Part shown: positions 17,386 to 60,062 of the stretch, piece after piece
How positions within the stretch are numbered: position 1 is the stretch's first letter
How the letters are laid out: each line of letters begins with the position of its first letter
NCBI GenBank assembly: GCA_964486505.1
Contig: CAZAMC010000003.1
Location: forward strand, 139,120 to 203,119
DNA from: an uncultured Gammaproteobacteria bacterium
Lineage (GTDB): Bacteria; Patescibacteriota; Patescibacteriia; PEXW01
DNA length: 64,000 bases
Direction of reading: 5' to 3'
Notes under the pieces: generated by a model
Seen by the model: only the letters and a program-made list of their open reading frames with translations
What the model was told of the DNA's origin: nothing
The model's database searches: none
Translations under genes and position numbers: made by a program

Positions 17386-17388
17386 TTC

Positions 17389-31955: not shown

Positions 31956-32271
31956 ACGCGCAACCTCCTGGGTAAGGCCTACCAACGACGCTTCGGGCGC
32001 CGGGTGAGCAATGACGAAATACCGCGGACAATCCGTCGTCCGAGGCTGGGTGAAGACTTAGCGTAGTACATAGTCTGGCCAAGCATGAGCAAGCTGATTT
32101 GCCCTTGCGGGAATACACTTGGTGCGAGGCGTTTCATAGTGTGGTTTTTCTTTTAGGTTACGAATACAGTGTAGCACTTTTTTCTCATCTCGTCAACGTA
32201 CGCTTGCGAACCTCGGATAAACACGTTAGGGTGCAAAAAACGAAAAACTGCAACTTCGAAAGGTGGTGCAC

Positions 32272-32953: not shown

Positions 32954-33208
32954 ATGGCAAAACTCCAACGCAAAGTTACGCTGCAGATCATTACGCTGCT
33001 CACCGGTGCGCTTGGCATGGTGGCGGCGCTCGCCTGGAATGAAGCGGTGAAAGCCCTGTTTGAAAAAATCTTCGGCGACGCCAGCAGCCTGGTCGCGAAG
33101 TTTACGTACGCGGTGGTGATTACCGCTATCGTCGTGTGGGTCACCACCCACTTGGCGAAGCTGCAGGATCAGTCGGACGAGGAGAAGAACCAGGACCGCA
33201 AGCCCTGA
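32954..33208 (+). CDS. Small two-TM membrane protein (84 aa), leaderless transcript
   Basis: Extended -10 TGcTATACT (32939-32947) then 6 nt then ATG; only the last 85 codons of the long track ORF 32465..33208 are protein-like. Confidence 0.5.
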   Translation: MAKLQRKVTLQIITLLTGALGMVAALAWNEAVKALFEKIFGDASSLVAKFTYAVVITAIVVWVTTHLAKLQDQSDEEKNQDRKP

Positions 33209-33630
33209 CGCGCTTCGGCCGCTGTCCACACCAAGACTGCCACCGCGAGGATCACAGCCTGCGAGGCGAGGCAGACAATGCAGTAGGCCTGCAGGTCAAA
33301 AGCCTCTACGCCCGTGAGGAAGAGCGCAAACCCGAGGGCGCCGGCACTTGCCAGGGCCATTGCACCCCACGTAAGGGCGCGGAGTTTTTGCGTGATCATC
33401 AACCACACACTCCCCAGAGCAAGCAGCGCATAGCCAACTATGCCGATGAGCGCCACCGGCACGCCGGCAATCTGGCTGGCCCAGCTCTTGTTCACCACGT
33501 CGCAGTTGAAGGTGTCGTTGATATTGCAGAACGTGGATGGGCCCACGGTGTAGTGCAATTTCAACGCATAGGCCGACACGGCAATGCCAACAAGTGACAG
33601 GATGAGGATGGCGATGAGTTTGCGGCGCAT
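33169..33630 (-). CDS. Vitamin K epoxide reductase (VKOR) family protein
   Basis: Four TM helices, a loop Cys pair (CNINDTFNC) and CIVC in the last TM, matching VKOR. Start chosen at MRRKLIAILIL. Confidence 0.6.
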   Translation of the reverse strand: MRRKLIAILILSLVGIAVSAYALKLHYTVGPSTFCNINDTFNCDVVNKSWASQIAGVPVALIGIVGYALLALGSVWLMITQKLRALTWGAMALASAGALGFALFLTGVEAFDLQAYCIVCLASQAVILAVAVLVWTAAEARQGLRSWFFSSSD

Positions 33631-33719
33631 GGTCTGTAGGCTACCAGGTTGACGCGCCCTCGTCGAGGCGGTACCGTAGGCGCACAAACCCATAAATGCC
33701 CTTTGAGAAAGGAGGCTCC

Positions 33720-34922: not shown

Positions 34923-35061
34923 GCACTTTGTATGAAACGCACCGTACGCCACCGGTGTGTTTTTCAATACGGCGGAAACAAAACCTGCATTGACAATGGG
35001 GACGGTTGTTGGTAATACACCTTCACCAAGAAATCAAAAACCCTTTGACAAGGAGGAATGC

Positions 35062-35979
35062 TTGAACGGTTTCAAAGCGGTGCTCAAGAGAGCCCAGGAG
35101 ATTGAGGCGGCGCGCTACGTACCAGTTCCAACGCAGACGTCGGTGGTGCTCCCCATCGTGGGCGCAGTCCGCATCACCGAAGAAAAGCTCGGTGGCGACG
35201 CGCGCTGGAGGGCGACAAATCCAGAGCAGGAAATATTCCTGCGGGACTACTACGGGTCAACGATTTCGCTGCTGGCAAGGGTGCCGGAGCTCGTATCGAG
35301 TGCCGAGGTACTCAAGGCTGCTGACCGGTATGAAGTGCGGGCGAAGAGCGTGCTGGATGTCACCGTCGAGTGGCCCGAGCTGGGTGATCAGACGGACATT
35401 GAGCACGCAATTACCAAGCAGCGCTTCGCGGGTGTTCGCATGAAGAGTGCGTACGTGACCTTCTTCCGCACTGCGGACCACCCGTACCCCGTAGCCTGTG
35501 TGAAGACGAAAACTGGTGACACTGTGTATATGGCTATGTGCCCAGAAGCACGGGGCCTGAAAGATCGGGAACTCGACCGGCTCATTGCCAAGTGCTTCTC
35601 CAGTGCCCAGCTTCGCCCCACATTTCGTGAATTCGGTGGCCTGCGCTTCCCCATGGTCAAGCACGAGCGCCTAGAGAACATCACCTGGCTCGTGGGCATG
35701 CGCGGCCAGGATGCCGAAGAGTGGCCCGCGGAAATCGTGGAGGCAACGCAGGAGACGAAGCTCCGTATGAACTGCAAAGGAGCACGCGTGCGCTCCGAGG
35801 TGCGACTCCGCACAGTGGTGTTACTCAGCGCCGGTCCCATGGACATGCCCCCGCCTGACCACACCATCGACCTCCCGTTCCTCATCTGGTTCACCCGACC
35901 GTCGCTCCCGGTCCCGTACGCCATTGCGCTCATTGGCGAAGCTGACTGGCGCGACCCCGGTGACCTCGAAAACATCTAG
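35062..35979 (+). CDS. Hypothetical protein (~305 aa)
   Basis: Frame is open from 34957; the preferred start is TTG at 35062 (AAGGAGG then 5 nt) downstream of a TTGACA-17-TAATAC promoter at 34990-35018. Alternative ATG starts are at 34957 and 34996. No recognised family. Confidence 0.5.
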   Translation: MNGFKAVLKRAQEIEAARYVPVPTQTSVVLPIVGAVRITEEKLGGDARWRATNPEQEIFLRDYYGSTISLLARVPELVSSAEVLKAADRYEVRAKSVLDVTVEWPELGDQTDIEHAITKQRFAGVRMKSAYVTFFRTADHPYPVACVKTKTGDTVYMAMCPEARGLKDRELDRLIAKCFSSAQLRPTFREFGGLRFPMVKHERLENITWLVGMRGQDAEEWPAEIVEATQETKLRMNCKGARVRSEVRLRTVVLLSAGPMDMPPPDHTIDLPFLIWFTRPSLPVPYAIALIGEADWRDPGDLENI

Positions 35980-36041: not shown

Positions 36042-36959
36042 CTAGCCCGCTGACATGGCCAGAAACTTCTCTGCATCCAGCAGCGCCATCACACCGAAAC
36101 CCGCGGCTACCGAAGCCTGCCGGTAGCGGGGATCGTGCACGTCGCCGGCGGCAAAAACCCCCTCCACGTTTGTCTTGGTGAAGTCCTTCACCACAATGAA
36201 GCCGTGGCTATCAACCTCGAGCTGGTCTTTAAAAATATCAGTTGCGGGTTTGTGGCCAATGGCGAGGAACAGCCCTTGGCAAGCGTAGTCCCGCACCTCA
36301 CCCGTCTGCGCATCCTTCAGCTTCACCCCAGCTACCGCTTGCTCACCAAGCACATCAACAACCTCACTTTTCCACTGCACGGAAATTTTCGGATTTGCAA
36401 GAACACGATCCTGCATAATCTTGCTGGCGTTGAATGAATCTTTCCGATGGACAATTGTCACTTTTGTAGCAAACTTTGTAAGAAAATTTGCTTCTTCCAT
36501 TGCCGTGTCGCCGCCACCGACGATTACGACTTCCTTGCCCTTGAAGAAGAATCCGTCACACGTGGCGCACGCCGATACGCCAGCGCCCCGCAGGCGCTGC
36601 TCATTGGGTAAACCCAGCCACTTCGCCTGCGCGCCCGTGGCGACAATGACGGTCTGCGCTTGTAGCGCTTGATCACCCACCCACAGCCGAAAAGGCCGTT
36701 GGGAAAAATCGACCTTTGTAACGTTCCCATCAATGAACTGCGTACCAAAATGCGCCGCTTGATCGCGCAGCTTCTGCATGAGCTCTGGCCCCTTGATGCT
36801 CACGTAACCGGGGAAATTTTCTACGTCTGTCGTATCCATGAGCTGGCCGCCCGGCTTCATACCAGCAATGACTAGGGGCTGGAGCTCGGCCCGGGCACCG
36901 TAAATTGCCGCCGATAAACCCGCCGGACCAGAACCAATGATAATGAGTTTATGAGCCAT
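36042..36959 (-). CDS. trxB: Thioredoxin reductase (canonical, NADPH-dependent)
   Basis: IIIGSGPAGL...GVSACATCDGFFFKGKEVVIVGGGDTAMEEANFLTKFATKVTIVHRKD: the CATC redox motif and HRKD NADPH motif are both present. Start chosen at MAHKLIIIG. Confidence 0.9.
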   Translation of the reverse strand: MAHKLIIIGSGPAGLSAAIYGARAELQPLVIAGMKPGGQLMDTTDVENFPGYVSIKGPELMQKLRDQAAHFGTQFIDGNVTKVDFSQRPFRLWVGDQALQAQTVIVATGAQAKWLGLPNEQRLRGAGVSACATCDGFFFKGKEVVIVGGGDTAMEEANFLTKFATKVTIVHRKDSFNASKIMQDRVLANPKISVQWKSEVVDVLGEQAVAGVKLKDAQTGEVRDYACQGLFLAIGHKPATDIFKDQLEVDSHGFIVVKDFTKTNVEGVFAAGDVHDPRYRQASVAAGFGVMALLDAEKFLAMSAG

Positions 36960-37110
36960 AGGGGTGAGGAATGTGGAAGCCCCCGCATCATAGCAATATC
37001 CTTCGACCCATCGCAAGGAACTCGCGAGAGAGAAAATCTCGTCACGAGGAAGGACGAGGATTCCCGCGGCGCGGGATCCGTGTCCTGACAAAGTTACACC
37101 AGCCCCGATA

Positions 37111-39231
37111 TTATTGCTCCTCCCAGCTCAACGTCTCGTACTGCCCCGTGGTGGGGAAATCAGGCGGCGGGGCGTAACTCAAGTTCGCATCGAAGATAAG
37201 GTCACGCAAGCAGTACCCCGAATTGTTATACTGGCCACCCCCACAATCAAACAGATTGTAGCCGGTCCAGGCAAAACCGTACCGTTGGTTCGTTGCAATC
37301 GCTCCAAAGTTCGTTAGCTGGGCGCGCTTGCGGTACTCCTGGCACGTTGTCCCGCCATCTGGATTTTGGCTCTGCGTGCAGGTGTCGGTGGTCACGCAGG
37401 TATCACCGGACGTACAGGGCCCCGTACTCGTCGTCACGCAGGTGTCGGTGGTCACGCACGGCCCAACGTCAGGCGCGCTCGAATCACACGTCCCAAAACC
37501 GGTACAGTGCGAATTCTGGGAGCACCCCCGATTATGGTCACCGGTACACCAACCGTTGCACCGCGCGTTCGTCGTGCACGAACGAGTTGGATCATTCTGG
37601 CAGTAGTTGCGGCAGTTGGTGTTCGTCGTGCACGCGCGCGTGGGAAACGCGTTGCAGTAGTTAATGCAGTCCCCGGTGACCGTGCAGGCGCGGTCGGTGT
37701 CCGTGCTGCACTTGTTGTTGCACTGAGCGTCGGCCGTGCAGTTGAGCGTGGGCGTGGCTTGGCAGTAGTTTGTACAGTCGCCATTCACGGCACAGGATCG
37801 TGCGGGGTTGCCCACGCAAATGCCGCCGGTGGGGTAGAGTTGGAAGTTCGCATTGTTCGTCGAGGTCGTGAAGCCTGCCCCGTAGTACGGTCGGCCCACC
37901 CGCCCGTTCTGAGCAATGAGGGCGGCGTCAATGCGAATGTCATTCTCGCTAAAGTACCCAACGAGAATGTTGTCCTGCGCGATGAGCCCAATAACGTCGC
38001 CACCGCTCGTATCGCCAACCGGCGTATACGTGAGGTCCTCGTTCAAGTAGATGTTTGCGCGGCCCGATGCAAGCGGCTCACGAGCGGCCACGATAGTGAG
38101 CCGAGAATTATCAACAGCCCCGTCAACCCAGAGATCGTCTTCCACGAAGATAATGCCATTTGCGGGCAGGTCTACGCCCAGGGAAGAGCCGCCGTTGTAG
38201 GTAAAGGCCGCCTGGTCATTCGCCCGGGTGCCCACGGAGTGTGACGACTGCACGCAGGTTGCCCCCGACGAACACTGGCTACTCTGTGTACAGCTGGTGT
38301 TGAAATCATTTGAACAGTACCCAAAGTCACGCCACGTCCCGCTGGCGTTGTACTGGCAGCGTAGCTGCGCATTCACCACGCGCATGTCAACCTTGCCATC
38401 GGTACGGAGCGTGAGGTGGTACCCTTGCCCACCGGATGGGAGCAGACGTATGCCGCTGGCAATAGCTTTGGTCTGCAACGCCTGCAAGTCCGCGGTGATA
38501 TTGGCGAAATCTACGTAGTCAGCCTGTACCTGCCGGCCCGCTTCAAAAACGTCGGGGCGGCTAGCAATTGTGGCCGGCGGCGCGGCGGGTGGAATGGGGT
38601 CGGTGGGGGCTATGTGTGTATGTACGCCCAGCTCGTTGCTGCCGGTGTGGTCAGGATCGTCGTAGCTATACCGGTACGACGTGACGAGATTATGTGCCAA
38701 ACCGTCAAACCGGATGCCGCCATTGCTGTGTATAGGACCAAATACTTCGGTACCGACGCCGAAGCGCATATCGGCATTCGCCACGACCGCCCACTTGGTG
38801 AATGAGGGGATCCCTTGCCGCACAACCACGGTGCGTGCGCTCGCCGGCCGATTGGTGAGCTGTCCAGTGGAGGTAATGGTTACAACCGTTGACCCCGAAG
38901 GGGGTGGCGCGATATCCAGGGTAAACGTGCCAATCACATTCCCGGTGGTGTCACGGTACTGGTGCACGTAGGGTCCCGTCGTACCCGTGCCATCTTGGAA
39001 ATCATCGGGCACGTGGGCAAGGTGCCACCGGTAGTACTCTACGCCTGCTTCGGCAATCTGAAATGCGCGCTCGCGTTCTACCCGAAATTTACTCGCCGCG
39101 TTCTGGGTGATGATGAACTGGAGGGCCAGCATACCGAGTGTGACGAAAAGTCCGGTGATAACCAGAATGCTCACGAGCATCGAGCCGGAGGACTGATTCG
39201 TTCGCGGTGAATTGGCGCGCGCACGACTCAT
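37111..39231 (-). CDS. Large prepilin-like protein (GspK/minor-pilin-like N-terminus lacking Glu+5) with Cys-rich tandem repeats
   Basis: N-terminus ...QSSGSMLVSILVITGLFVTLGMLALQ is a class-III-signal-like hydrophobic segment. C-terminal region holds 7-8 repeats of C-x5-C-x3-C (...CTNYCQATPTLNCTADAQCNNKCSTDTDRACTVTGDCINYC...). 706 aa; last gene of a three-gene operon. Confidence 0.6.
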   Translation of the reverse strand: MSRARANSPRTNQSSGSMLVSILVITGLFVTLGMLALQFIITQNAASKFRVERERAFQIAEAGVEYYRWHLAHVPDDFQDGTGTTGPYVHQYRDTTGNVIGTFTLDIAPPPSGSTVVTITSTGQLTNRPASARTVVVRQGIPSFTKWAVVANADMRFGVGTEVFGPIHSNGGIRFDGLAHNLVTSYRYSYDDPDHTGSNELGVHTHIAPTDPIPPAAPPATIASRPDVFEAGRQVQADYVDFANITADLQALQTKAIASGIRLLPSGGQGYHLTLRTDGKVDMRVVNAQLRCQYNASGTWRDFGYCSNDFNTSCTQSSQCSSGATCVQSSHSVGTRANDQAAFTYNGGSSLGVDLPANGIIFVEDDLWVDGAVDNSRLTIVAAREPLASGRANIYLNEDLTYTPVGDTSGGDVIGLIAQDNILVGYFSENDIRIDAALIAQNGRVGRPYYGAGFTTSTNNANFQLYPTGGICVGNPARSCAVNGDCTNYCQATPTLNCTADAQCNNKCSTDTDRACTVTGDCINYCNAFPTRACTTNTNCRNYCQNDPTRSCTTNARCNGWCTGDHNRGCSQNSHCTGFGTCDSSAPDVGPCVTTDTCVTTSTGPCTSGDTCVTTDTCTQSQNPDGGTTCQEYRKRAQLTNFGAIATNQRYGFAWTGYNLFDCGGGQYNNSGYCLRDLIFDANLSYAPPPDFPTTGQYETLSWEEQ
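37366..37700. repeat. Direct DNA repeats encoding the Cys-rich modules
   Basis: cacgcaggtgtcggtggtcacgca occurs twice (about 37375 and 37436), with many related copies (gtcaccaccgacacctgcgtgac family). Confidence 0.5.
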
Positions 39232-39830
39232 AGGTTGTCTTTGAGGTTACGGAAGGCCACGCTGGTTTGCAAATCAATAGCGGCCGGGGTTTGGCTGGGG
39301 TCGGCATCAATACTGAGCAGGACGGTGACTAACCGAACGTCCTGCAGAGTTACTGGGAAGGTGAGCGCGGCTTCCGATCCGGTGTATGACGTATCGAAGT
39401 ACTGGAAGATGGGTGCCGCGCCATTGCGCACGCCAGTTACCAACGTGCTCACCGCTTCGCTACCCGCTGGGTACGACGCCGGTTGGCCAACGGGCTGGAT
39501 GAAGCCGAGCTTCAAATCAGAACCCTGGAGAAAGAAGCGAACCTGCTCCCGATCCGCATCTGCATCTGCATTCGCGTAGAAAGTTAATGACTGCGCGGCC
39601 GCCGCAGCAATGGGGTAGCTCCCGTTATTCGAGGGCTGCGCTTCCCGCACAAGCCGTGTAATGCGCGCCAAAGCCGTCCGGGCTTGCTCCTGCGCGTCAA
39701 CTTGCTCTCGATTCTGGTTCCACGTCCGCAAACCAAAAGCCGCAAAGGTGCCTAGCATCGTTGCCACAATTGCAAAGATGCTCGCGGTCACAATGACTTC
39801 AACTAGAGTGAATCCTGAGGGGCGATGCAT
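39228..39830 (-). CDS. Type IV pilin-like / pseudopilin (GspJ/PilV-like minor pilin)
   Basis: Prepilin-peptidase motif MHRPSG|FTLVEVIVTASIFAIVA (G-F-T-L-V-E with Glu at +5); 200 aa; 4-nt overlap with the upstream gene. Confidence 0.75.
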   Translation of the reverse strand: MHRPSGFTLVEVIVTASIFAIVATMLGTFAAFGLRTWNQNREQVDAQEQARTALARITRLVREAQPSNNGSYPIAAAAAQSLTFYANADADADREQVRFFLQGSDLKLGFIQPVGQPASYPAGSEAVSTLVTGVRNGAAPIFQYFDTSYTGSEAALTFPVTLQDVRLVTVLLSIDADPSQTPAAIDLQTSVAFRNLKDNL

Positions 39831-39833
39831 AGC

Positions 39834-41996
39834 TTAGGCCGGAACGAGTGAGAAGGTGTTCTGAACATGACCGCTCACATCCACATCAACCGTCAGAGGG
39901 GTGTAGCCGTCTTTCGTCAACGTCACGCTATAGGTTTGCGCCGAAAGACTGGGGAAGAATGCTTGGCCCGGGGGGGTGCACCCCGTGGTAAATCCAATAC
40001 GCACATCAGTAATACCGGGCGTCACCTTCTGGTCTGCCGTCTGCAAGAAGAGCTTGTACCGGATATAGCGCTTCGACTGAATACTGGCTGGCAATGCATC
40101 ACCGCTTGTGGTGAAGTACGTAGCGTTCGTGCCATCTGGCCCCACGAAATTCCACGTTGCATTATCGTCATTCGTTGCGAGCTGGAAACGGGCCGCCTCA
40201 GACCCTGCCTCGGCGGTCTGGCTTTGCGGTTCCCACGTGAGCCCAAAGAACGTGCTCGCCGTACCCGTGTCATAGGACGACGACGTGAGCGTCCCGTTGC
40301 TGGCGTACGTCTCTATAGTCAAGTCAATGGAGACATCCTGCACGACGGGCGTCACATTGGGGTCGGCGGTTTCGAGTTCAATACGGAAGCGCAGGACGTC
40401 ACCCGCCGAAACAAAGGCATGGGTCACATCGGGGGTAACTTCTTCAAACGTCGTGCCATCGGCCGACAGGTAGTAGCGAATAACCTGGCCATTCTCATTC
40501 CGCGCCGAACTCAGCGTGGCATCCACAATCTTCCCGGCGGGTGTGGGGATCTGCAAAGTCTGGGCTATCGCGCTAGCATCGTATAGCCCCGCGGTCTGAG
40601 ACAGGCGGAGCTCGCCCGCCCCGGTATCCCAGGTCGCCGTCGTAGAAGGATCACGGTTGGTAGTGGTATCAAAACTTTCGGATACCGCATCGGCACTCGA
40701 TGACTTCGTGAGCGTTACCTGGCCCGGCGTAGAGGTGACGTCAATTCCGCCGGTCTCGCTGTCGTACTTCGTCGCGTCTGTAAAATCTGCTTGGCCACTC
40801 CCGCCCGACCAGTTGGTTTGTGCCCATGTGCCCTGGCCGGTTGTCTTCGTCCCTACCCCGCTTACGTCAACGGTCGCCCCCGAGATGGGTGCGCCCGTGT
40901 TGGCATCCTTCACGCTCGCCAAAAGGGAGTTGGCCGAGTAGCTGGTCGTGAGGACCAAGGTAACTTGCGCATTCGTATCCGGCAGCACGTTCAAGCTCGC
41001 GGGCGGGATTATGCCAGCAATATTTCGCGTCAGCCCACCGAGCGTCAGGGCGTAGTTATCCCAAACCAAGCTACTCGCGGTCGCTTGGCCGCTACCATTG
41101 GTGGTGAAGCTCTGATCATACGCCAGCACCGGCGAGGGCGGTGGGTTGCCTTTCAACCGTTGGCCGCTGAGCTGGAAGTCAACTCCGGATTGCACTGCGC
41201 ACGTCTCGTTCACGGTGGTGAACGCCAAGCTGCTCAGGTGATCGATAGCAAAAGTGATGTCGAGCACGCCGCCGGCGGTAATCGAAAGGTTCGGGCGCAC
41301 GGGGTTGGGGAGTGCTACGGAAACTGCAAAGGTTTGATCTGTCGTGAATCCCGCTTTTGTTACGCGAACATTGTAGTTGTCTACGTCAGGCAGCAGGCTC
41401 AACAGTTGTAGCTTGCCGTTCACGTCCGTCTTCGAAGAAATGTCGACATCCGGATCCAGATTAGTATTCGTCACGTACACGTCTGCTTCCGAGACAGGCA
41501 GCCCCGACGCATCAATAACCGAAACCAGGAGCGAACCGGTATTCGATGGCGACTCCAGGCCCGCCGGCATAATAGATGTAGTGAGTTTAACCGCCTCGTC
41601 GCCTCCTGCCCACGTAACAGACACCTCGACCAGCTTGTAGTCCGTGGGCACCGTATCGGGTGGCGTGTCGGTGACCAGCTTATCGAACGTATCATCTACC
41701 CACTTCACACACGTATCCACCGTGAAGGTGACGTTGGAACGGACGGCGGTCATGGAGCGGGCGAATGGTCCGGTCACTTCGCACGTTGGCGCTTGCGTCC
41801 CGACGTCGCTAAACGGCGCATTGCGGAGCACCTCAATGCGCTCATTGGCTAGTGCGGTTGCGAGGACGCGAACCTTAGAACGGGCCAACTTCTCGGCGCT
41901 TAAGCTAAACATCCCTAACGCAAATGTCACCACGAGGCCAATAATTGCGACCCCAATGAGTGTCTCCACAAGTGTCGTGCCCTTCCTCCGTAGCAT
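39834..41996 (-). CDS. Giant prepilin-like protein (720 aa) with Ig-like/carboxypeptidase-regulatory-like extracellular domains
   Basis: N-terminus MLRRKG|TTLVETLIGVAIIGLVV is a type IV pilin class III signal with Glu+5, followed by a long S/T/V/D-rich beta domain. Confidence 0.7.
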   Translation of the reverse strand: MLRRKGTTLVETLIGVAIIGLVVTFALGMFSLSAEKLARSKVRVLATALANERIEVLRNAPFSDVGTQAPTCEVTGPFARSMTAVRSNVTFTVDTCVKWVDDTFDKLVTDTPPDTVPTDYKLVEVSVTWAGGDEAVKLTTSIMPAGLESPSNTGSLLVSVIDASGLPVSEADVYVTNTNLDPDVDISSKTDVNGKLQLLSLLPDVDNYNVRVTKAGFTTDQTFAVSVALPNPVRPNLSITAGGVLDITFAIDHLSSLAFTTVNETCAVQSGVDFQLSGQRLKGNPPPSPVLAYDQSFTTNGSGQATASSLVWDNYALTLGGLTRNIAGIIPPASLNVLPDTNAQVTLVLTTSYSANSLLASVKDANTGAPISGATVDVSGVGTKTTGQGTWAQTNWSGGSGQADFTDATKYDSETGGIDVTSTPGQVTLTKSSSADAVSESFDTTTNRDPSTTATWDTGAGELRLSQTAGLYDASAIAQTLQIPTPAGKIVDATLSSARNENGQVIRYYLSADGTTFEEVTPDVTHAFVSAGDVLRFRIELETADPNVTPVVQDVSIDLTIETYASNGTLTSSSYDTGTASTFFGLTWEPQSQTAEAGSEAARFQLATNDDNATWNFVGPDGTNATYFTTSGDALPASIQSKRYIRYKLFLQTADQKVTPGITDVRIGFTTGCTPPGQAFFPSLSAQTYSVTLTKDGYTPLTVDVDVSGHVQNTFSLVPA

Positions 41997-42069
41997 AGGT
42001 AGTAGTATAGCGTACTTCCACGGAGGGCAGTGCTATACTAAGGGGCGACTCGCTCTAACCCAAAGGCTT

Positions 42070-45000
42070 ATGACCCGTCGACACTACCTGAAGTTCACGA
42101 GTGGACTTCTCCTATTCACTGTGCTCTGGTCATTCCCGGGAATGATGAGCCCAGCGCGGGCTGTGACCAACGTCGTTGCTGGCACCGTTACTACCAGCGC
42201 CGGGGCGCCCATGGCGGGTGTCACCATGGAGCTGCACACGCCGGACGGTGTTTTCACGACAAATACCACGACCGCGGCGGATGGTACGTATCACTTTGAC
42301 AACGACCTTACGGTGGGTACGAACTACGTGGTGGAACCGCGGACGCCCGCAGGCTACAACCGCGTAAATACCAGCGCGAACAACAATAACTTTACCTACG
42401 ATGGGGTTTCTCGCTCAGGGGTGAACTTCCAGTTTGTTGCCACGAGCAAAACCATCAGCGGCCGCGTGACGGACACGAACGGCGTTGCCATTACCGATGC
42501 CGACATTAACATCACGCCCTACAACAACCCCAATGCCAGTAACGCCGCCGCCCGAACCGACGGCACCGGCGCCTACTCGGCCACGGTCGTGGGCGGCACG
42601 TGGTTTGCCCAGCCTGTGGTCAACCTCTCCGAATACACACAGCGCTGGATTAGCGAGACGCCTCCACAGCGCATCGACTTTGCGAACGACGCTACTGCCG
42701 AAACGGCAACCCTCAACTTCCAGGTAACCCCCGCCACTGGGAAGGTAACCGTAACCTTGCTCAACAGCGACGGGAGCAAGCTCACGACGAGCAACTTCGT
42801 AGCCGACATTAACTTCCGCCGGGCCGATGGCGTAGGCACCATGCGCAAAGTGCAAGCGGCCACCTCCACTGTGAGCGTGTACCTCACCCCGGGCATCTAC
42901 ACCATCTCGGCGTTCCACAACGATCTTCGCGGTAAGTCATTCGATCCCGCCGCAACGACCTTTGTAATGACAGAGAACGGGAACGTAGACCTCGGGACAG
43001 TGCAAGCCCAAGTCGATAGCGCCCACCTGACAGGCAAGGTGACGAATACCAGTGGCCAAGCCCTACCGAATGTGCACATCCAGGCCATCCGCGAAGGCGG
43101 ACAGGAGCGGCCGAGTGGGAATACTGACCCGAATGGAAACTTTGATCTCACGGTTGGTGCAGGCACCTGGGTGATTGGCCTGGATACGAACGATACCTCG
43201 CACACCCTGGTTGCTCCAGTGAGCGCAACGGTGACGAACGGGCAAACCACGACGGGCCTCAATTTGCAGGTCAAGGACCTCGACCGAACGGTTTCCGGAC
43301 GGGTGCTGAACGCGAACGGCGCGGTGGTCACTGACTTCGTGGGCAGCGTGTACGTCCGAACACTATCGAACAGCGCCCGGGTGAGCGCCCCGGTCGTTGA
43401 TGGCACGTTTAGTGTAAAGTTCGCATCCAAAGAGATAACGGGCAGCAAAATTGTCGTTGGAACCCAAGCCGCCCCCGGCACGGCCTATGCGGGCGGCAAT
43501 GAAAAGCAGGTAACGTCGGGAAATACTGTGGCTACCGATCTTACCCTCCGAGCATACGATGCCACGCTCACGGGTACACTCCGCTTGCCGGATGCCACGG
43601 TAGTCACCAATGCGGGTTCGGACCTACAGGTCGTGGCTGTAGATGCCAGCGGTAACTTTGCCAGCACCACAGTTGGGGCTGATGGCTCGTACTCTCTGCC
43701 CCTTGCCGCCGGCACTTGGCTCTTCGACTACGACATTGAAGACCCTGAGGATACCAGTGGGTTGCTCAACCGCCCCTCGGGCCAGAGCAGCGTCACCATC
43801 AAGGCCGGCCAAACGCTCACGCGCAATCTCACGGTTCGGCTCGGCACGAATACCATCACCGGCACAGTGCGCGACTCCAGTGGTGCTGCCGTTGGGAGCG
43901 TAAAAGTGACCATCGACAACCGCCCCTCGCTGGAGAGCAATGCGGCCACAAATCCAAACGACATTGTCACGCAGACCGTGGAGACGGATGTGAACGGCGT
44001 GTACACCACAAAAGTCCCGAATGGTACGTACCTCATCACTGTGGGCGAGACCCCAGCAGTTGCCGACACCCAGATCCAACCCGATGGCAAGGCGGTAAAA
44101 GTGAGCGGCGGCTCAACCACGACCGTGAACCTCACCTTTGAGGCAAGCAACGCCGTAGTGAAAGGCAAGGTCCTCCTCAACGGCAAGGGCGAGGGTGGCG
44201 GTACCATTACCGCGTACTCCGCCGATGGCGCGCAGGCAACGGCCACCGTGAACAGCTCGGGCAACTACACCCTGAACCTAAACAAGAACGAGAAGTGGAC
44301 CCTGGTCGCCACTGACCTCAAGGGTCAGCGCTTGGTGGCAAGCGACGCTGCCGAAATTACGCCGAAAGCAAACACGACGACCAAGAACCTCACGGTAAAA
44401 GACACGGGACTTGCTGTTCCCGGCCCGGTCACCAAGACCGGCAACGCCGATGATAGCGTGAGCGTGAGCCTGGCCGATGGCACGAACGTCACGGTTCCGC
44501 CCTTCGCCCTCGATATTTCGGGCACTGTGGAAGTAACCGTTACCCCCACCATCGATATTGACCCCACGACGCTGGATCGCCCGGCTTCTCTCGCCTATGA
44601 AGTAAGCGCATTCGATGCAACAGGCCGCGAGGTGAAAGCGCTCAACACTCCGGCGACGATAACCTTGCCGTACAAAGAGAGCACGGTGGTGAATAACGGG
44701 TTGCGGGAGAAGGCGCTGGCGACCAAGTACTGGGACTCGCAAACCGAATCCTGGTCCACCGATGGCGCCGCCGGACTTGTGAATACCACCAAGAACACGG
44801 CGACACTCACTACGACTCACCTTTCAAAATTCTCGGTTACCGGCACGGCCCGGGCGACACCAAAACTGACGGCGAGCAAGTTGGTGAGCCGCAATAGCAC
44901 CAGCCTGGTCATCGAAGTAAGCGGCAGCAACATGAAGGGCAAAGCCACAGCAAAACTTGGCACGGTGAAAGCCACAAAAGTAGAGGTGCGCAGTAGCAGC

Positions 45001-45153
45001 GTTGCCCGCCTCACCTTCCCGACCAAGTCGGTGAAGAACGGCACGTACGACCTCACCTACACCAATGCCGATGGCCGCTCGACAATCAAACGGACTACGG
45101 TAAGTACCGGCCGCGTGCTTGGCGAGAGCGTGGCGCGGATTATTCCCCGATAA
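42070..45153 (+). CDS. Large secreted multi-domain protein (repeated CarboxypepD_reg/Cna-B-like Ig-fold modules, C-terminal IPT-like domain)
   Basis: Start chosen at MTRRHYLKFTSGLLLFTVLWSFPGMMSPARA (signal peptide). Recurring ...G.V.D..G.....A.V........TDA.G.Y.....G.Y modules; 1027 aa; divergent from the pilin-like operon. Confidence 0.7.
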   Translation: MTRRHYLKFTSGLLLFTVLWSFPGMMSPARAVTNVVAGTVTTSAGAPMAGVTMELHTPDGVFTTNTTTAADGTYHFDNDLTVGTNYVVEPRTPAGYNRVNTSANNNNFTYDGVSRSGVNFQFVATSKTISGRVTDTNGVAITDADINITPYNNPNASNAAARTDGTGAYSATVVGGTWFAQPVVNLSEYTQRWISETPPQRIDFANDATAETATLNFQVTPATGKVTVTLLNSDGSKLTTSNFVADINFRRADGVGTMRKVQAATSTVSVYLTPGIYTISAFHNDLRGKSFDPAATTFVMTENGNVDLGTVQAQVDSAHLTGKVTNTSGQALPNVHIQAIREGGQERPSGNTDPNGNFDLTVGAGTWVIGLDTNDTSHTLVAPVSATVTNGQTTTGLNLQVKDLDRTVSGRVLNANGAVVTDFVGSVYVRTLSNSARVSAPVVDGTFSVKFASKEITGSKIVVGTQAAPGTAYAGGNEKQVTSGNTVATDLTLRAYDATLTGTLRLPDATVVTNAGSDLQVVAVDASGNFASTTVGADGSYSLPLAAGTWLFDYDIEDPEDTSGLLNRPSGQSSVTIKAGQTLTRNLTVRLGTNTITGTVRDSSGAAVGSVKVTIDNRPSLESNAATNPNDIVTQTVETDVNGVYTTKVPNGTYLITVGETPAVADTQIQPDGKAVKVSGGSTTTVNLTFEASNAVVKGKVLLNGKGEGGGTITAYSADGAQATATVNSSGNYTLNLNKNEKWTLVATDLKGQRLVASDAAEITPKANTTTKNLTVKDTGLAVPGPVTKTGNADDSVSVSLADGTNVTVPPFALDISGTVEVTVTPTIDIDPTTLDRPASLAYEVSAFDATGREVKALNTPATITLPYKESTVVNNGLREKALATKYWDSQTESWSTDGAAGLVNTTKNTATLTTTHLSKFSVTGTARATPKLTASKLVSRNSTSLVIEVSGSNMKGKATAKLGTVKATKVEVRSSSVARLTFPTKSVKNGTYDLTYTNADGRSTIKRTTVSTGRVLGESVARIIPR

Positions 45154-45202: not shown

Positions 45203-45748
45203 CTACGCTGCCAATGACGCAATAATGAAAATTCCGAGCCCGTTGAGGAGAAAGGAGAGTGGCAAGAAGTACTTTTGGGGCATGTGCGAGAGCCCCAGGA
45301 GACCACTGCCGAGCTCATCAGGCAACGGAGAGGCGATGACCAGCGCACCCACTGCGGCGAGCGCCCACGCAATTGCCGGCTTACCAAAGTACTTCTCACG
45401 AAGCGTGGCGAAAAATGGACGCGTCGTTGTCTGTCGGACGAAGGCAAAGATGAGGGCATCGTAGAGCATGGCCCCCAACCCGCCCAGTAGTGCCAAGGAC
45501 CACGGTGACATGGTGGGTGCCGCATCAATGATCATGGCTGTAGCAAGCGGCGCGGTGAAACCAATGGTATAGAGCACGCCCGTAATGAACGCGCCGAGCG
45601 GCCCGCTCTCGGCAATGCCAAAGACCACGGACCGTAAGCCGGGCACCAGGAGGACCACCGCAACGAAGGCAAGGCCAAAAATGAAGAGGGTGAGCGGCAG
45701 CTGGTTTCGTACCACGCTCTTCTGTACCGGCTGAATAATGTCGACCAT
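45203..45748 (-). CDS. Hypothetical polytopic membrane protein
   Basis: Start chosen at MVDIIQPV; 5-6 hydrophobic helices; no recognised family. Confidence 0.5.
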   Translation of the reverse strand: MVDIIQPVQKSVVRNQLPLTLFIFGLAFVAVVLLVPGLRSVVFGIAESGPLGAFITGVLYTIGFTAPLATAMIIDAAPTMSPWSLALLGGLGAMLYDALIFAFVRQTTTRPFFATLREKYFGKPAIAWALAAVGALVIASPLPDELGSGLLGLSHMPQKYFLPLSFLLNGLGIFIIASLAA

Positions 45749-45816
45749 GAGAGTAGTGTAGCAAACGAAACCAGCCCCGCATTTGCGGGGCTGGTGCGGT
45801 GCGTTCAACTATTCTG

Positions 45817-46983
45817 CTAGTCGTCGTCTTCGACGCTGGCGTCCTGGGCTTCTTTAAAGAATACTCGTTCTGCGGTGAGCTTCTTCGTGTTGGACGTGTA
45901 CGTGCCCAGAACCTTCAGCTTGTCGCCCACAGTAATGTCGGCGAAGGTTCGCAAGCCGTTCTCATCCACGTACTTTGTCGCAGCGGTCACGATGACGGTA
46001 ATGTCACCGTAGCTCTTCTCCTTGGTGCGGAGTGTAAACGACGTTCCGTCGGTACCCAAGGCGAGAACCGTCCCCTGGACATCACCCCGCTTGATCTTCA
46101 AGCTGGAATTGCGTACGGACTTCGCGTTCATCGTGTTCGTGTCTGTAAGCGTGCCCCGAGCCTCTACCTTATCGCCGACCAAAAACTCTTCAATGGTCGC
46201 CGTCTTCAAGTAATGACGGTAGAGCTTCGTGCTGGAGGTCACGTTGACAGTCCAAGACGTTGTGGGCGTGGAGCTATTCTCCGAGGTACTGGCCTTCACC
46301 CCTTTCGAGCTCTTTCCCTTCACGGTAACGGTGAGAGTCGCGGGCAAACCGCCGTCCGTCAGGGTGATGGCACTCACGGTACCGCTAATCGTGCGCAGGT
46401 CAACGATGACCCGATCGGCATCAATGCGGCTGTCGGCTTTACGCCAAATCCCAATGACCTTCATGCGCTCACCATTCGTCAAGCTGGCACAGCCAATCTT
46501 TTCGCCCCCGCGAGTGAACTTGGTCGCAGTGGTGAAATACACGGTCTGCTGCGCCCGTTCGTCCGGCTTAAACGTGAATGAGTTGCTATCGCAATTCTTC
46601 TCAAGGAGCTTGCCCTTAAAGGTGCCCCCAATTCGCTGGATTGATACGTTCTTAATCCGCGTGGCATTTATGGTATTCGCGACGTCATTTGAGGGTGTGC
46701 CGCGAACTTCTACGCTGTCCCCAACCAAAAACTCACCGAGGTCGGATGTACCATTGTACTTCCGCACAACTGTGGTCGAACTCGTTATCTCTACTGTGTA
46801 GATTGTCGCCCCAGACTTCACTGTCATGGTGGCAGGAATGGTCGTGCCACTCATCGCTTGGATGGTGCCAACCACCCGCAAGGTGCTGCTACTAGTGTCC
46901 TCCGCTCGAACGGGCACGGCCGCTCCAAGCATAGCGGCGAGGGCGATAGCGCTCACGCCCGCTGTGAGAATGCGTTTTCGCAT
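45817..46983 (-). CDS. Secreted repeat protein (three related beta-rich modules)
   Basis: Signal peptide MRKRILTAGVSAIALAAMLGAAVPVRA; internal repeats ...EFLVGDSVEVRGT..., ...EFLVGDKVEARGT..., ...ITVGDKLKVLGT... Confidence 0.6.
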   Translation of the reverse strand: MRKRILTAGVSAIALAAMLGAAVPVRAEDTSSSTLRVVGTIQAMSGTTIPATMTVKSGATIYTVEITSSTTVVRKYNGTSDLGEFLVGDSVEVRGTPSNDVANTINATRIKNVSIQRIGGTFKGKLLEKNCDSNSFTFKPDERAQQTVYFTTATKFTRGGEKIGCASLTNGERMKVIGIWRKADSRIDADRVIVDLRTISGTVSAITLTDGGLPATLTVTVKGKSSKGVKASTSENSSTPTTSWTVNVTSSTKLYRHYLKTATIEEFLVGDKVEARGTLTDTNTMNAKSVRNSSLKIKRGDVQGTVLALGTDGTSFTLRTKEKSYGDITVIVTAATKYVDENGLRTFADITVGDKLKVLGTYTSNTKKLTAERVFFKEAQDASVEDDD

Positions 46984-47121
46984 AGTGCGTACATGGGTTA
47001 GGGAACGAGTGTTGCGAAGTATAGAATACGGACCAGCGTATAGGCAACCTTGCCGGACGCTATAACCTAGTACACTCGAACACAAAAAAACTTTCACGTC
47101 TACCGTGCCAATGTGCGAAAA

Positions 47122-48777
47122 CTAGGAAATTTCCTCGCGCTTTTCCTTAAGGTAACTAAACCACTCGTCAACGGCCTCCACGAACATCTTGAACGGTGCT
47201 TCGATAATGAAATCCAGGAAGAAAACAATGAAATTCACTTTCGGCACCTTCTTGGAGAACCACTGCCCTAAACGCAGGATCGGCAGGGAGAATGACGAGA
47301 GGAGAAGCAAAAATAAGTTCTCCCGACGATCGCGAAGGGTGAGCTCTTGAGCGAGACCCCGCACGCGCGTGCCAAACAGTGAGATAACCGAGAGGAAGAA
47401 AATAAAGACGACGATGGAAAGCCAGTTGAACTGCAAGGCGGTGAGGCCCCAGACAATGGCGCCAAAGGTGACAACGAAAGTCGCCAGGTAGAACAGGTAA
47501 AAGAAGAACGAGCGCAGTTTGCCCCGGGGCCGGGGTCGGAGCCGAGCGCCGAAGATTTCTCGCGGCGTGGTGGGACTCACAATTTCCTGCACAGCTTTTA
47601 CCACGAGCGCCGTATTCTCCTTACCAGGCAAGCGGGCGGAGAGAGCAATGGTGAACATGAGCACCGGGTGGAAAATGCTGTTGATGTAGATTGGCATGAG
47701 CGCCCGCTCACGCAGCACGAAGACTTCGTACGGCAACTCTATCGCCAGCGCCAGCATCATCTTGGTGATGAAGATGTAGATAATGCTCCGAACCGAGGTG
47801 CGGCGTAGGCGCGTCCGGGCCGTCTTCAGCTTGCTCTTCATGGCCTCCTCAACCGCTTCCTGCAGGGTAGCGGGATTCTGCAGGATGGCGTTGGCTTCCT
47901 GGGCGCCTTTCTCGCGAACTATGTCAGCCAAAATGAGAAACGGGATTGTGTACCGACGACAGATGACGAGCAGGCGTTCGGAGAGAGGATGGTTAATGCG
48001 CTCTTCAATGGACTCAACAAGCTTTGGAAATTTCTCTCGCACCTGTTCGGTAACGGCGTGATTGGGGTGCTCCCACTCGGGGAAGGCCCACTTGAAAAGG
48101 TGGTAACGGAGCACAGCGTCATCGCTCTTTATGAGCGCTCGGTGAATTGCCAAGTACACGAGTACATCTTGCTCCTGGCCAGCCGGCACGCTTTCGGGAA
48201 GTACGAGATTTGAACGAATCGTAGCGTACATGACTTCCACCAGGGCATCTTGCCGCGTACTGGGTGACAGCCGTTCTTCTAAATCGGCAGAAGCCACGCT
48301 GAGAATCCAACGAATATGCCGGCGGTCTTCCGGGTTCGTGCGCCGAAGCTGAAGGTGGTCCAGGAGCGCCAGGTACCGGTCCACGTAATTTTGGACGACG
48401 GCCACAAGTGTCTCAGGCAAAGCATTGTTGGGCAGGTACCGGCCACGAATGAGTTCGTAGATGAGCAGCCGAGCATCGACCATGGAACGATTCTCAACCA
48501 AGTACCGCCGCCGGAGAATGCGCTCAATGGCGTTCCGCCGCAACAGGTGCTCCTCATTGAACTCAATACTGTTGCGCAGCTTCTCGTAGAAGTACGCCAT
48601 CTTGCCAATGACTTCGTTGAGCTTAATGCGGGGCAAGCCTGGCGGCGCCTCCAAGTTCGGCAAAGGCTCTGCATAGCTCTGGAGGAGCTTCAGGGCGCTT
48701 TTCGGGAATGGGGAGCCTTCGGTCATATGGGTATCTCTATTGTAGCCGAAACCTACCACGTCGACGATGGATGACAA
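47122..48777 (-). CDS. Hypothetical protein, N-terminal ~330-aa helical domain + C-terminal multi-TM domain (551 aa)
   Basis: Long ORF with good coding composition but no RBS; 5-6 TM helices in the last 220 aa; no family recognised. Confidence 0.5.
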   Translation of the reverse strand: MSSIVDVVGFGYNRDTHMTEGSPFPKSALKLLQSYAEPLPNLEAPPGLPRIKLNEVIGKMAYFYEKLRNSIEFNEEHLLRRNAIERILRRRYLVENRSMVDARLLIYELIRGRYLPNNALPETLVAVVQNYVDRYLALLDHLQLRRTNPEDRRHIRWILSVASADLEERLSPSTRQDALVEVMYATIRSNLVLPESVPAGQEQDVLVYLAIHRALIKSDDAVLRYHLFKWAFPEWEHPNHAVTEQVREKFPKLVESIEERINHPLSERLLVICRRYTIPFLILADIVREKGAQEANAILQNPATLQEAVEEAMKSKLKTARTRLRRTSVRSIIYIFITKMMLALAIELPYEVFVLRERALMPIYINSIFHPVLMFTIALSARLPGKENTALVVKAVQEIVSPTTPREIFGARLRPRPRGKLRSFFFYLFYLATFVVTFGAIVWGLTALQFNWLSIVVFIFFLSVISLFGTRVRGLAQELTLRDRRENLFLLLLSSFSLPILRLGQWFSKKVPKVNFIVFFLDFIIEAPFKMFVEAVDEWFSYLKEKREEIS

Positions 48778-59831: not shown

Positions 59832-60062
59832 CTACTTCACGATTACGCCGCGATCCCGGAGAAGAGCCTCCAATTTGCGGATGTACTTTGCGGTTGTCAG
59901 GTAGAACAACAAGAGCACTGCACCTTCAAACCACATATGCTCAAAAGCGGCTTTCCAGTTAGCCGGAGGGACTAATGCTTGGTATGCATATGAACCAATA
60001 GCGAAACCAAGAAATGTGCCCAACGCAGCCCTTTTGTACCACCACATTTTGCTAAACCACAT
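59832..60062 (-). CDS. Possible small membrane protein (76 aa)
   Basis: Two hydrophobic helices; Trp-rich N-terminus; no RBS identified. Confidence 0.35.
   Translation of the reverse strand: MWFSKMWWYKRAALGTFLGFAIGSYAYQALVPPANWKAAFEHMWFEGAVLLLFYLTTAKYIRKLEALLRDRGVIVK

Follow-up and report, generated by a model that had tools for sequence, protein, structure and literature searches.

Several described minor-pilin sets resemble the locus studied here. Characterised GspI-type subunits have about 120 amino acids. In the GspI-GspJ-GspK and PilV-PilW-PilX sets, three adjacent, co-directional genes encode, in order, a subunit with a small head, a subunit of about 200 amino acids, and a large subunit lacking Glu5. 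The C-terminal strand of K-type subunits, with GspK and CpaL as precedents, completes the pilin sheet (PMC13533445). The GspK-like pilin ComZ of Thermus thermophilus carries a solenoid insertion, and a position at the pilus tip has been proposed for it (PMC6561018). The tip complex of Streptococcus sanguinis, PilA-PilB-PilC, has modular pilins among its subunits (PMC9934059). Briefly, PilA is GspI-like, a vWA module is grafted onto PilB, and Ig-like and ConA-like lectin modules onto PilC (PMC9934059). Within the phylum considered here, Nanosynbacter lyticus TM7x encodes the minor pilins of its T4P-1 system (pilV1-pilZ1-pilW1-pilX1) after pilC. The pilA1, pilV1 and pilW1 genes of TM7x could not be deleted, T4P-1 is proposed to drive twitching, and the globular parts of pilins are reported to be poorly conserved across the phylum (PMC12206443).

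We analysed a 64-kb stretch of DNA from an ultrasmall Patescibacteria (CPR) bacterium, hereafter the window, containing three genes (A, B and C) with the order and orientation of GspI-GspJ-GspK and PilV-PilW-PilX. The best explanation is that A-B-C is equivalent to one of these sets, or to Thermus PilA2-PilA3-ComZ. We estimate a probability of roughly 0.8 that the triad is the minor-pilin initiation and tip module of a type IVa-like pilus. Note that, by this likeness, a complex between A, B and C is putative. Unlike the GspI-J-K and PilV-W-X sets, the triad has no adjacent H-type gene (GspH/FimU) and no adjacent PilY1.

Three abutting genes and their N-termini

Genes A (39834..41996), B (39228..39830) and C (37111..39231) are on the minus strand, start with ATG, and encode proteins of 720, 200 and 706 amino acids. 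In the ORF list, A and B are 3 nt apart, and B and C overlap by 4 nt, exactly matching an earlier note on this DNA. Each gene has hundreds to thousands of homologues, so all three are real rather than chance ORFs. For B, the count is at least 1644, at about 205 amino acids each. Members of the A family usually have 580-780 residues, and those of the C family about 460-530.

The earlier note proposed prepilin-type N-termini for all three products. This holds for A and B, which have class III signals, while C is hydrophobic and Gly-terminated but has no Glu+5. The N-termini read MLRRKG/TTLVE (A), MHRPSG/FTLVE (B) and ...NQSSG/SMLVSILVITGLF (C), where the slash follows the conserved Gly. For A, the leader is MLRRKG, cleavage is predicted before T7, and Glu occupies position +5; for B, the leader is MHRPSG and the mature protein begins FTLVE. 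A six-frame motif scan of the whole 64 kb found canonical prepilin motifs in A and B only, and no further canonical pilin. The signal of B, previously called a textbook example, was corroborated by Pfam N_methyl (E 2.7e-7, above threshold). TIGR02532 also scored above its cut-off, and a B profile matched solved type IV pilins over their alpha1 helix (E 1e-4). The signal proposed for A is conserved family-wide, but A itself matches N_methyl below threshold (E 0.0058). Its +1 residue, Thr, is rare in the family (3 of 55), where the consensus is [KR]-G-F-T-L-I-E, with variants [KR]-G-[FTVLY]-[TS]-L-[IV]-E. Matches to N_methyl occur in 55 of the 69 A-family members and in 58 of the 61 B-family members. 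Gene C itself has no Pfam or NCBIfam match. Within the C family, 22 of 70 members match PilX_N; the family as such has AEAG-x-YYRWHLAH, a hydrophobic helix and a conserved Gly in common, and lacks Glu+5. We classify C as a PilX_N/GspK-type minor pilin of ComZ-like architecture. Profile searches against PDB sequences detected only the N-terminal helix.

The pilin fold presumed for the two giant proteins was recovered in AlphaFold models. Each has an N-terminal helix of 50-59 residues (residues 9-58 in A and 15-73 in C), then a small beta-sheet head (GspI-like, about residues 60-145, in A; residues 88-140 in C). The structural neighbours of these pseudopilin-like sheets are GspI, GspK and ComZ. 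Because both heads resemble generic pseudopilin folds, with C matching GspI too, the I and K labels rest partly on gene order and the missing Glu5. Gene B is proposed to be a GspJ/PilW-type middle subunit because of its size, gene position and automatic names; several homologues are labelled 'PulJ' by JGI.

Might A and C instead be signal-anchored or Sec-secreted surface adhesins, with N-termini that merely look like those of pilins? The sub-threshold N_methyl score of A, and the lack of any profile match for C itself, would fit. So would the deposited NCBI model of gene A, which starts 9 codons later and excludes the motif. Furthermore, ComZ (PDB 6qvi), like C, lacks a canonical PilD motif. 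The same is true of TM7x PilX1, the enlarged last pilin of its set, and PilX1 and PilX2 are not predicted PilD substrates (PMC12206443). Nevertheless, the Gly(-1)/Glu(+5) motif is kept across the A family, in frame and 5' of the NCBI start. The long modelled helices also lead into sheets matching GspI, GspK and ComZ, and, in most genomes, the triad is strictly 3' of pilC and 5' of pilM, where detected. We consider adhesins of this kind very improbable.

Modules of genes A and C

Beyond its pilin part, A carries about 570 amino acids of Ig-like and jelly-roll modules that set it apart from GspI. Three transthyretin/CarboxypepD_reg-type beta-sandwich modules (40737..41537, minus strand; residues about 154-420) precede two jelly-rolls. 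The second of these is conserved and has no Pfam family (39981..40301, minus strand; residues 566-672). The first (40302..40694, minus strand; residues 435-565) is a tandem duplicate of the second, with 38% identity over 60 amino acids (E 3e-9). This extra module is confined to the subfamily of ~720 amino acids, and is absent from 41 of 41 members of ~600 amino acids. A PEGA/TTR-like sandwich forms the C-terminus (39837..39974, minus strand; residues 675-720). In joining Ig-like and jelly-roll modules to a pilin, A resembles the modular pilins of S. sanguinis, whose pilus, as presumed here too, is made by a cell without an outer membrane. The types of module differ, however, the I-like subunit is itself modular here, and no sequence homology between the triad and S. 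sanguinis PilA-B-C was detectable.

In the model of C, a beta-solenoid (about residues 149-470) occupies the place of the alpha-helical domain inserted in GspK. TM7x PilX1 is set apart by its description, which is of a beta-jelly-roll C-domain. Gene C encodes 32 Cys, 25 of which fall within 166 residues (about 466-632). The Cys-rich segment proper (37342..37818, minus strand; residues 472-630, 24 Cys) has about six 18-residue C-x5-C-x3-C-x7 units, then C-x5-C units, and is modelled with partly low confidence. As DNA, the segment contains no tandem repeat. The 25-Cys insert sets C apart from ComZ and is confined to the closest homologues (P0001-P0008), with a loop of 4-18 amino acids in the core family. 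Hence, of the Cys-rich repeat stalk described earlier, the periodicity stands, but the segment is a lineage-specific insert in the beta-solenoid and no core feature. One C homologue is named 'dickkopf-related', and Dickkopf_N weakly matches 2 of 70 members.

The extreme C-terminus of C (37114..37170, minus strand; residues 688-706, PPPDFPTTGQYETLSWEEQ) is nearly invariant family-wide. In the alignment, P688, P689, P690, F692 and P693 are invariant, and residues 699-705 form the terminal beta-strand of the AlphaFold model. By its resemblance to the in-cis closing strand of K-type subunits (PMC13533445), this strand is a candidate for closing the pilin sheet in cis. The layout of C is also like that of CpaL, from Tad pili, in which a pilin-like N-terminal domain and a large dispensable middle are followed by a strand at the C-terminus that rejoins the sheet. 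CpaL/TadG belongs to another pilus class, and the tapirins of Caldicellulosiruptor are, to our knowledge, not pilins; neither has a sequence relationship to C.

The likeness to ComZ raises the possibility that the triad serves specifically as a DNA receptor at the tip of a competence pilus, with C binding extracellular DNA. PilT-driven retraction would then reel in DNA, for nucleotide scavenging or transformation, and adhesion to host cells would be secondary or absent. Consistent with this, PilA2, which is GspI-like, and ComZ bind DNA together (PMC6561018), and Saccharibacteria are naturally competent (PMC10633639). Gene A also weakly matches the ComGE model (E 6.5e-4, under the cut-off). Conversely, C and ComZ are only 16% identical, sequence searches with C did not retrieve ComZ, and the two DNA-contacting lysines of ComZ cannot be placed in C. 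The same solenoid fold binds ice or cellulose in ice-binding proteins and tapirins. In Saccharibacteria, type IV pili are essential independently of ComEC, and mediate host binding and twitching (PMC10633639, PMC12206443). The modules of A are typical of adhesins or lectins. The two systems also differ in that the I-position partner of ComZ is a small pilin, and in that the cell carrying this locus, unlike Thermus, is believed to lack an outer membrane and a secretin. DNA binding by C is putative, and we regard a dedicated competence receptor as possible but doubtful.

Gene order across Patescibacteria

Among related loci with room for all three genes, A, B and C are adjacent, and in the same order, in 68 of 71. 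Judged from these sequences, Patescibacteria have the triad phylum-wide, as their standard minor-pilin module with a strict gene order; it is not an oddity. In 52 of 65 loci (about 80%), the pilB-pilC pair directly precedes the triad, and pilM-pilN-pilO were detected downstream in some. A major pilin is rarely close: only about 8 of 80 loci have one no more than 10 kb from the triad. In about 8 loci, a canonical pilin of ~140 amino acids directly follows C, reproducing the Thermus order pilA2-pilA3-comZ-pilA4. In the full Thermus locus, pilA1-pilA2-pilA3-comZ-pilA4, comZ comes after two smaller prepilin genes, a position like that of C (PMC6561018).

The triad is away from pilB/pilC and a major pilin in about 11 of 65 loci, comprising its own clade and a minority of others. 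In this window, as in the related loci L007, L008 and L001, the triad lies apart from pilB/pilC/pilMNO. From the loci compared, this split appears clade-specific, as do the TrxB, VKOR and PilT neighbours and the 25-Cys insert in C. As stated previously, no pilB, pilC, pilD or major pilin gene is in the window: BLASTP with references found no PilB, PilC or PilM/N/O among all window ORFs, and 33 further window ORFs, scanned with Pfam, included no prepilin peptidase. The nearby pilT (30909..31985, minus strand) encodes a genuine type IVa retraction ATPase (447 bits for TIGR01420, whose cut-off is 319; T2SSE, E 1e-44), although the distance is 5.1 kb and not about 6 kb. In L007 and L008, a 90% identical copy is found in the corresponding place.

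The separation from pilB/pilC/pilMNO could indicate an orphaned remnant, in a clade where the machinery is lost or different and no pilus is assembled. We think this highly unlikely. The three ORFs are intact; their identity to orthologues in several genomes is 55-89%, and they retain invariant family residues and tight translational coupling. PilT is kept in the neighbourhood, and modules have been gained, not lost.

The divergent gene (42070..45153, plus strand) encodes a secreted protein of 1027 amino acids, with a Sec signal and multiple Ig/TTR repeats: six stretches match CarboxypepD_reg, and there are SpaA and Big_6 domains. The triad could be the piston of a T2SS-like pseudopilus, exporting neighbours such as this protein. 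The structural neighbours GspI and GspK are T2SS pseudopilins, homologues carry the JGI labels 'PulG' and 'PulJ', and the closest clade conserves the Ig-repeat gene as a divergently oriented neighbour. However, related loci contain the type IVa alignment genes pilM-pilN-pilO. PilT is encoded in the window, whereas T2SS lack PilT, and no secretin or GspC/L/M genes were seen. Cell filaments are also well documented in CPR bacteria (PMC12206443). The earlier description of a secreted, divergently transcribed Ig-fold protein was right, but it co-occurs with the triad in only the two closest reference genomes (L007 and L008, 64% identical and divergent from A), and is absent at 76 of 78 other loci. 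We consider a pseudopilus quite improbable. The Ig-repeat protein has no significant similarity to gene A and is probably a separate surface protein.

A putative assembly path

Conserved signals, models and pilus-operon position support the earlier suggestion that the pilin-anchored giants belong to an adhesin displayed on the pilus or to a tip complex, and that the distal subunit is GspK-like. Active pilus machinery in the genome is an assumption, because PilB, PilC, PilM/N/O, the peptidase and a major pilin are absent from the window. In the initiation and tip module that we favour, A and B would be cleaved after Gly6 by a prepilin peptidase whose gene is elsewhere in the genome. Gene C product, without Glu+5, as in K-type subunits, would go in first and cap the fibre. 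The three long N-terminal helices would form a membrane-embedded bundle on the PilC platform and template PilB-driven polymerisation of a major pilin encoded elsewhere. Since the cell is thought to lack an outer membrane, no secretin channel would limit size, so the bulky parts of A and C could ride at the pilus tip. From A, this load would comprise all the sandwiches (three transthyretin-like and one terminal) and both jelly-rolls; from C, it would comprise the ComZ-like solenoid and the disulfide-rich insert. Its modules may bind a host-cell surface polymer, DNA, or both, and PilT, encoded 5 kb downstream, would retract the fibre.

Two further neighbours are of interest. A thioredoxin-disulfide reductase gene, trxB (36042..36959, minus strand; TIGR01292, 394 bits; likely start M45), is about 150 nt downstream of C. 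It also follows C in L001-L003, L007, L008 and L087, and this synteny suggests an association with the triad. A VKOR-family membrane protein (33169..33693, minus strand; Pfam VKOR, E 9.8e-24), syntenic in L007 and L008, is a candidate extracytoplasmic disulfide-forming enzyme and, more speculatively, may be linked to the Cys-rich gene C.

N-terminal signals of genes A, B and C

Three genes lie together on the minus strand: A (39834..41996, 720 aa), B (39228..39830, 200 aa) and C (37111..39231, 706 aa). In the ORF list, 3 nt separate A from B, while B and C overlap by 4 nt. The coordinates and shared orientation match exactly those in an earlier note on this DNA. A promoter and terminator scan of 36800..42300 did no better than shuffled controls. 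Downstream of this triad are genes for a thioredoxin reductase (trxB; 36042..36959, minus strand, TIGR01292), a FabH-like enzyme, a VKOR-family protein (33169..33693, minus strand), a CDP-alcohol phosphatidyltransferase and PilT (30909..31985). The earlier note was correct that pilT is nearby, and the gene is genuine (TIGR01420, 447 bits), but the distance is 5.1 kb, not about 6 kb. Upstream, and divergent, is a gene for a 1027 aa Sec-signal protein (42070..45153, plus strand) with CarboxypepD_reg, SpaA and Big_6 repeats. This Ig/TTR-repeat protein has no cysteine and a weak GPS-motif match. A recent duplication linking A and the divergent protein was considered and rejected, as the two are not significantly similar (E 0.22). 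BLASTP of all window ORFs detected no PilB, PilC or PilM/N/O, as the earlier note had said for pilB and pilC. Likewise, the window ORFs that were scanned yielded no prepilin peptidase (PilD) or Peptidase_A24-like gene. Four other ORFs, encoding 133-489 aa, have no Pfam or NCBIfam match: 34957..35979 (plus strand), 50488..51957, 48988..49389 and 45203..45808 (all minus strand).

The translated N-terminus of A is MLRRKG followed by TTLVETLIGVAIIGLVV, and that of B is MHRPSG followed by FTLVEVIVTASIFAIVA. With a slash for the cleavage site, the contexts are MLRRKG/TTLVE and MHRPSG/FTLVE. Each is a class-III signal: a short basic leader ending in Gly, Glu at +5 and some 20 hydrophobic residues. 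A six-frame regular-expression scan of the 64 kb found canonical prepilin motifs in A and B only. Gene C encodes a basic leader, then SSG/SMLVSILVITGLF, with Ser at +5 and hence no Glu+5. We checked these N-termini with HMMs. B is above the thresholds of Pfam N_methyl and TIGR02532. A has an N_methyl match below threshold (E 0.0058), plus three stretches matching CarboxypepD_reg, and draws support from its homologues, 55 of 69 of which match N_methyl. Both proteins would be cleaved by a putative PilD. Note that, against PDB sequences, profiles of the B family and the A-family head matched only the N-terminal helix (alpha1) of solved pilins (E about 1e-4); GspI and GspJ were not found. Hence, subunit types cannot be assigned from sequence alone.

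The NCBI model of A (P0121, 711 aa) begins nine codons late, at the GTG of Val10. This start follows an internal GGAGGA (41969..41996, minus strand) and loses the MLRRKG/TTLVE signal. In the A-family alignment, the motif [KR]-G-x-T-L-[IV]-E is in frame upstream of the GTG. Hence, the ATG at 41996 is the better start. Similar mis-starts would conceal pilins from N_methyl-based annotation.

Predicted architecture of A and C

An AlphaFold2 model of A, from a 69-sequence alignment (mean pLDDT 87.5), shows residues 9-58 as a helix, followed by a small region of four strands (81-142) and then a chain of all-beta modules. The predicted structure is thus a lollipop fold, with an alpha1 of about 50 residues on an antiparallel beta-sheet. 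The pilin moiety (residues 1-145) precedes three TTR-like modules, two jelly-rolls and one PEGA-like module. Independent folded modules after a class-III signal and pilin moiety correspond to the modular type IV pilin concept, in which functional modules are grafted to a pilin moiety (PMC8179133, PMC9934059). The prediction also bears out the earlier view of A as a large pilin-anchored protein. The jelly-rolls (40302..40694 and 39981..40301, minus strand) are tandem duplicates, 38% identical over 60 aa (E 3e-9). The first copy (40302..40694) is missing from all A-family members of about 600 aa. The jelly-roll module matches no Pfam family.

C was modelled using 70 sequences (AlphaFold2, pLDDT 82.9, pTM 0.75). 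The model has a helix at 15-73, a sheet at 88-140 and then many short strands in succession, at about 149-470. The distal part includes a cysteine-rich stretch, partly of low confidence, and C-terminal strands at 636-705. Gene C has no match in Pfam or NCBIfam at E up to 1, so its family link is drawn solely from homologues and structure. A PilX_N match occurs in 22 of 70 C-family members, the window protein not being one of them. A pilin-like helix without Glu+5 points to C as K-type (that is, a GspK/PilX-like minor pilin), and Glu5 is absent family-wide. Together with the predicted helix and sheet, these observations support the proposal that the distal subunit is GspK-like. The family conserves a Gly, the hydrophobic helix and then AEAG-x-YYRWHLAH. 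The extreme C-terminus, PPPxFPTTGQYxxISWEE, is nearly invariant. In K-type subunits (GspK, ComGG-like, CpaL/TadG) a terminal strand completes the pilin sheet in cis, which licenses assembly by the PilI-PilJ dimer (PMC13533445). The modelled layout of C fits such a closing strand. A and C could alternatively be non-pilin surface anchors, and neither passes a pilin threshold itself. With a pilin-like helix and sheet predicted in both, we regard this as very improbable.

The C model also resembles ComZ, the Thermus DNA-receptor pilin. In ComZ, a solenoid like that of ice-binding proteins is inserted into a GspK-like pilin domain, ahead of its last strand (PMC6561018). It is argued to be at the pilus tip, binds the GspI-like PilA2 and DNA, and is not a predicted PilD substrate (PMC6561018). 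C is likewise predicted to combine a GspK-like pilin domain with an inserted beta-solenoid of the ice-binding-protein type. It is the one triad subunit that structure links to ComZ. No paper naming ComZ alongside Patescibacteria, CPR or Saccharibacteria turned up in a full-text search. We also considered C as an ice-binding (DUF3494) protein. This was rejected; there is no Pfam match, the protein has a pilin helix and head, and the gene sits in pilus operons.

The triad in related genomes and its proposed place in the pilus

All named homologues of A, B and C are from Patescibacteria (CPR). A word-indexed search returned 2938 matches to C, most of them 470-530 aa long; several carry the name 'pilus assembly PilX N-terminal domain-containing protein'. 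An exhaustive profile search gave 1802 cluster representatives at 50% identity, 366 of them at E ≤ 1e-30. There were 106 matches to A (580-780 aa, many with N_methyl and CarboxypepD_reg) and at least 1644 to B (about 205 aa, with the JGI name 'PulJ' on several). Orthologues of A or C were placed on long contigs by exact-product look-up. Scanning one-genome-per-species contigs yielded 80 loci, annotated by BLASTP with reference proteins. A, B and C adjoin one another colinearly in 68 of the 71 loci that could accommodate all three genes, and in the remaining three (L051, L055 and L076) an extra gene of about 1.5 kb separates A from B. Hence, an operon first taken to be unusual is ordinary for the lineage.

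Pilus machinery genes are frequent neighbours. Upstream, on the same strand, pilB/pilC are found in 52 of 65 loci; about 11 of 65 have the triad without pilB/pilC within 10 kb. The pilM-N-O genes, for which BLAST sensitivity is limited, were seen directly downstream in a minority of loci. Three distant genomes have the order pilB (MshEN+T2SSE), pilC (T2SSF), A, B, C, pilM, pilN, pilO and a small gene. Two loci are ordered pilB-pilC-pilM-pilN-(pilO)-A-B-C. PilT in the window, and PilB-PilC (PilM-N-O where detected) flanking the triad in most related genomes, would fit a type IVa system. The Gsp-like subunits and 'PulJ' labels could instead indicate a T2SS-like pseudopilus but, alongside this machinery, we consider that quite improbable. 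Nor do we give much credence to the triad being an orphaned remnant, a reading suggested by the lack of pilB and pilC in the window. Directly after C, about 8 of 80 loci have a canonical pilin of about 140 aa (GFTLIELLVVIGIIAILA...), which lies about 100-800 nt downstream in L037, L051, L052, L055, L067, L074 and L076. This is likely the major pilin of those systems. Thermus pilA2-pilA3-comZ-pilA4 has the same order.

Loci L007 and L008 (62-64% identity to C) fall with the window in a small clade. The clade's layout is DUF5666, the divergent Ig-repeat protein, A, B, C, TrxB, (FabH-like), VKOR, a small membrane protein and PilT. L001-L003, which are somewhat further removed, retain A-B-C and TrxB, not the Ig-repeat gene. 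Co-occurrence of the triad with 42070..45153, raised in the earlier note, is therefore not a property of the module, since it is confined to the nearest relatives (L007 and L008). In both, the Ig-repeat, DUF5666 (45817..47097, minus strand) and 551-aa protein (47122..48777, minus strand) genes occur together beside the triad. The 551-aa protein has no family match. These genes may be a further surface-protein cluster.

Several observations combine to indicate a GspI-J-K / PilV-W-X-type minor-pilin module. These are the gene order; the place directly behind pilC; Glu5 in A and B but not C; the GspI-like head of A; the size of B (about 200 aa) and its automatic 'PulJ' labels; and the GspK/ComZ-like C with its conserved terminal strand. 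Elsewhere, the I-J-K complex primes assembly and stays at the tip (PMC9934059, PMC13533445). By analogy, A, B and C would form a heterotrimer located at the tip. Motifs, predicted folds, gene order and the place after pilC support the earlier tip-complex or adhesin interpretation, which is essentially right. We conclude that the triad is most likely a conserved Patescibacteria pilus tip module. In this clade it has an arrangement of its own, with A gaining a further jelly-roll and C a disulfide-rich insert. Host envelope polymers and DNA are candidate ligands. A dedicated DNA-receptor role, as for ComZ, is possible but doubtful.

Patescibacteria are thought to have no outer membrane, so large grafted modules could be displayed. 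Those of S. sanguinis PilB and PilC are likewise displayed (PMC9934059). The nearest precedent in the phylum is T4P-1 of TM7x (Nanosynbacter lyticus, Saccharibacteria), which has its minor-pilin genes downstream of pilC and an enlarged PilX1 that lacks a PilD signal (PMC12206443). PilX1 is described with a jelly-roll domain (PMC12206443), whereas a solenoid is predicted for C. The T4P-1 pilins tested could not be deleted, and pilin heads are poorly conserved across the phylum (PMC12206443).

The ultrasmall, host-dependent Patescibacteria conserve few surface machines, type IV pili being one of them. These pili are indispensable to cultivated Saccharibacteria, where they mediate host binding and twitching (PMC12206443, PMC10633639). 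Whatever sits at the tip would be what recognises host or DNA, in the rest of the phylum too. Here, tip and initiation roles are assigned to a strictly conserved three-gene module. Its variable parts, the jelly-roll duplication and cysteine-rich insert, are candidate specificity determinants and concrete targets for binding assays and comparative host-range studies. The system is not of a new kind; precedents exist in modular pilins, ComZ and I-J-K complexes, all of them established. The most useful new point is a ComZ-like cap subunit combined with an unusually large subunit at the I position (the GspI-like place in gene order).

The cysteine-rich insert of C and its neighbours

C has 32 cysteines, 25 of them within a 166-aa insert of about six 18-residue C-x5-C-x3-C-x7 units. 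Tandem Repeats Finder detected no DNA tandem repeat under this region. Hence, it is a diverged protein repeat and not a recent expansion. Only the homologues nearest to C, at 63-89% identity, carry the insert. In most of the family this site is a loop of 4-18 residues, and a protein may have just two cysteines in total. C292 and C630 are the invariant pair. Some family members (P0012, P0021, P0036 and P0038) have 28-56 cysteines and no insert at the site used in the window's C. Cysteine-rich decorations were therefore gained at different points of the solenoid in different lineages.

In L007 and L008, too, the VKOR-family gene and trxB accompany the triad, and the clade with this linkage is the one whose C bears the 25-cysteine insert. 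Such synteny is suggestive of a disulfide-forming partner for C, which may depend on VKOR. A bolder proposal is that non-Saccharibacteria Patescibacteria share an undescribed tip architecture. The I-position subunit would be a multi-module adhesin arm of 600-770 aa, and the cap a ComZ-type beta-solenoid pilin. The window clade would have moved the module from a pilBC-pilMNO operon to a TrxB-VKOR-PilT neighbourhood, duplicated the A jelly-roll and gained the 25-cysteine stalk in C. We think this unlikely as a whole. If true, tip assembly or stability would rely on a dedicated extracytoplasmic disulfide-forming pathway, and tip modules would evolve as a separately regulated host-range cassette.

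Judged by translated N-termini, 13359..14327 (minus strand) reads as a second thioredoxin-reductase-like flavoprotein, which would give two TrxB-type genes in the window. It adjoins a thioredoxin gene (14337..14660, minus strand) with a WCGPC motif. G+C content is 0.49-0.51 at 14001..18000 and 60001..62000, compared with about 0.57 elsewhere in the window. The first of these regions spans the thioredoxin gene, a gene for a 243-aa signal-peptide protein and a bactofilin gene (17008..17385).
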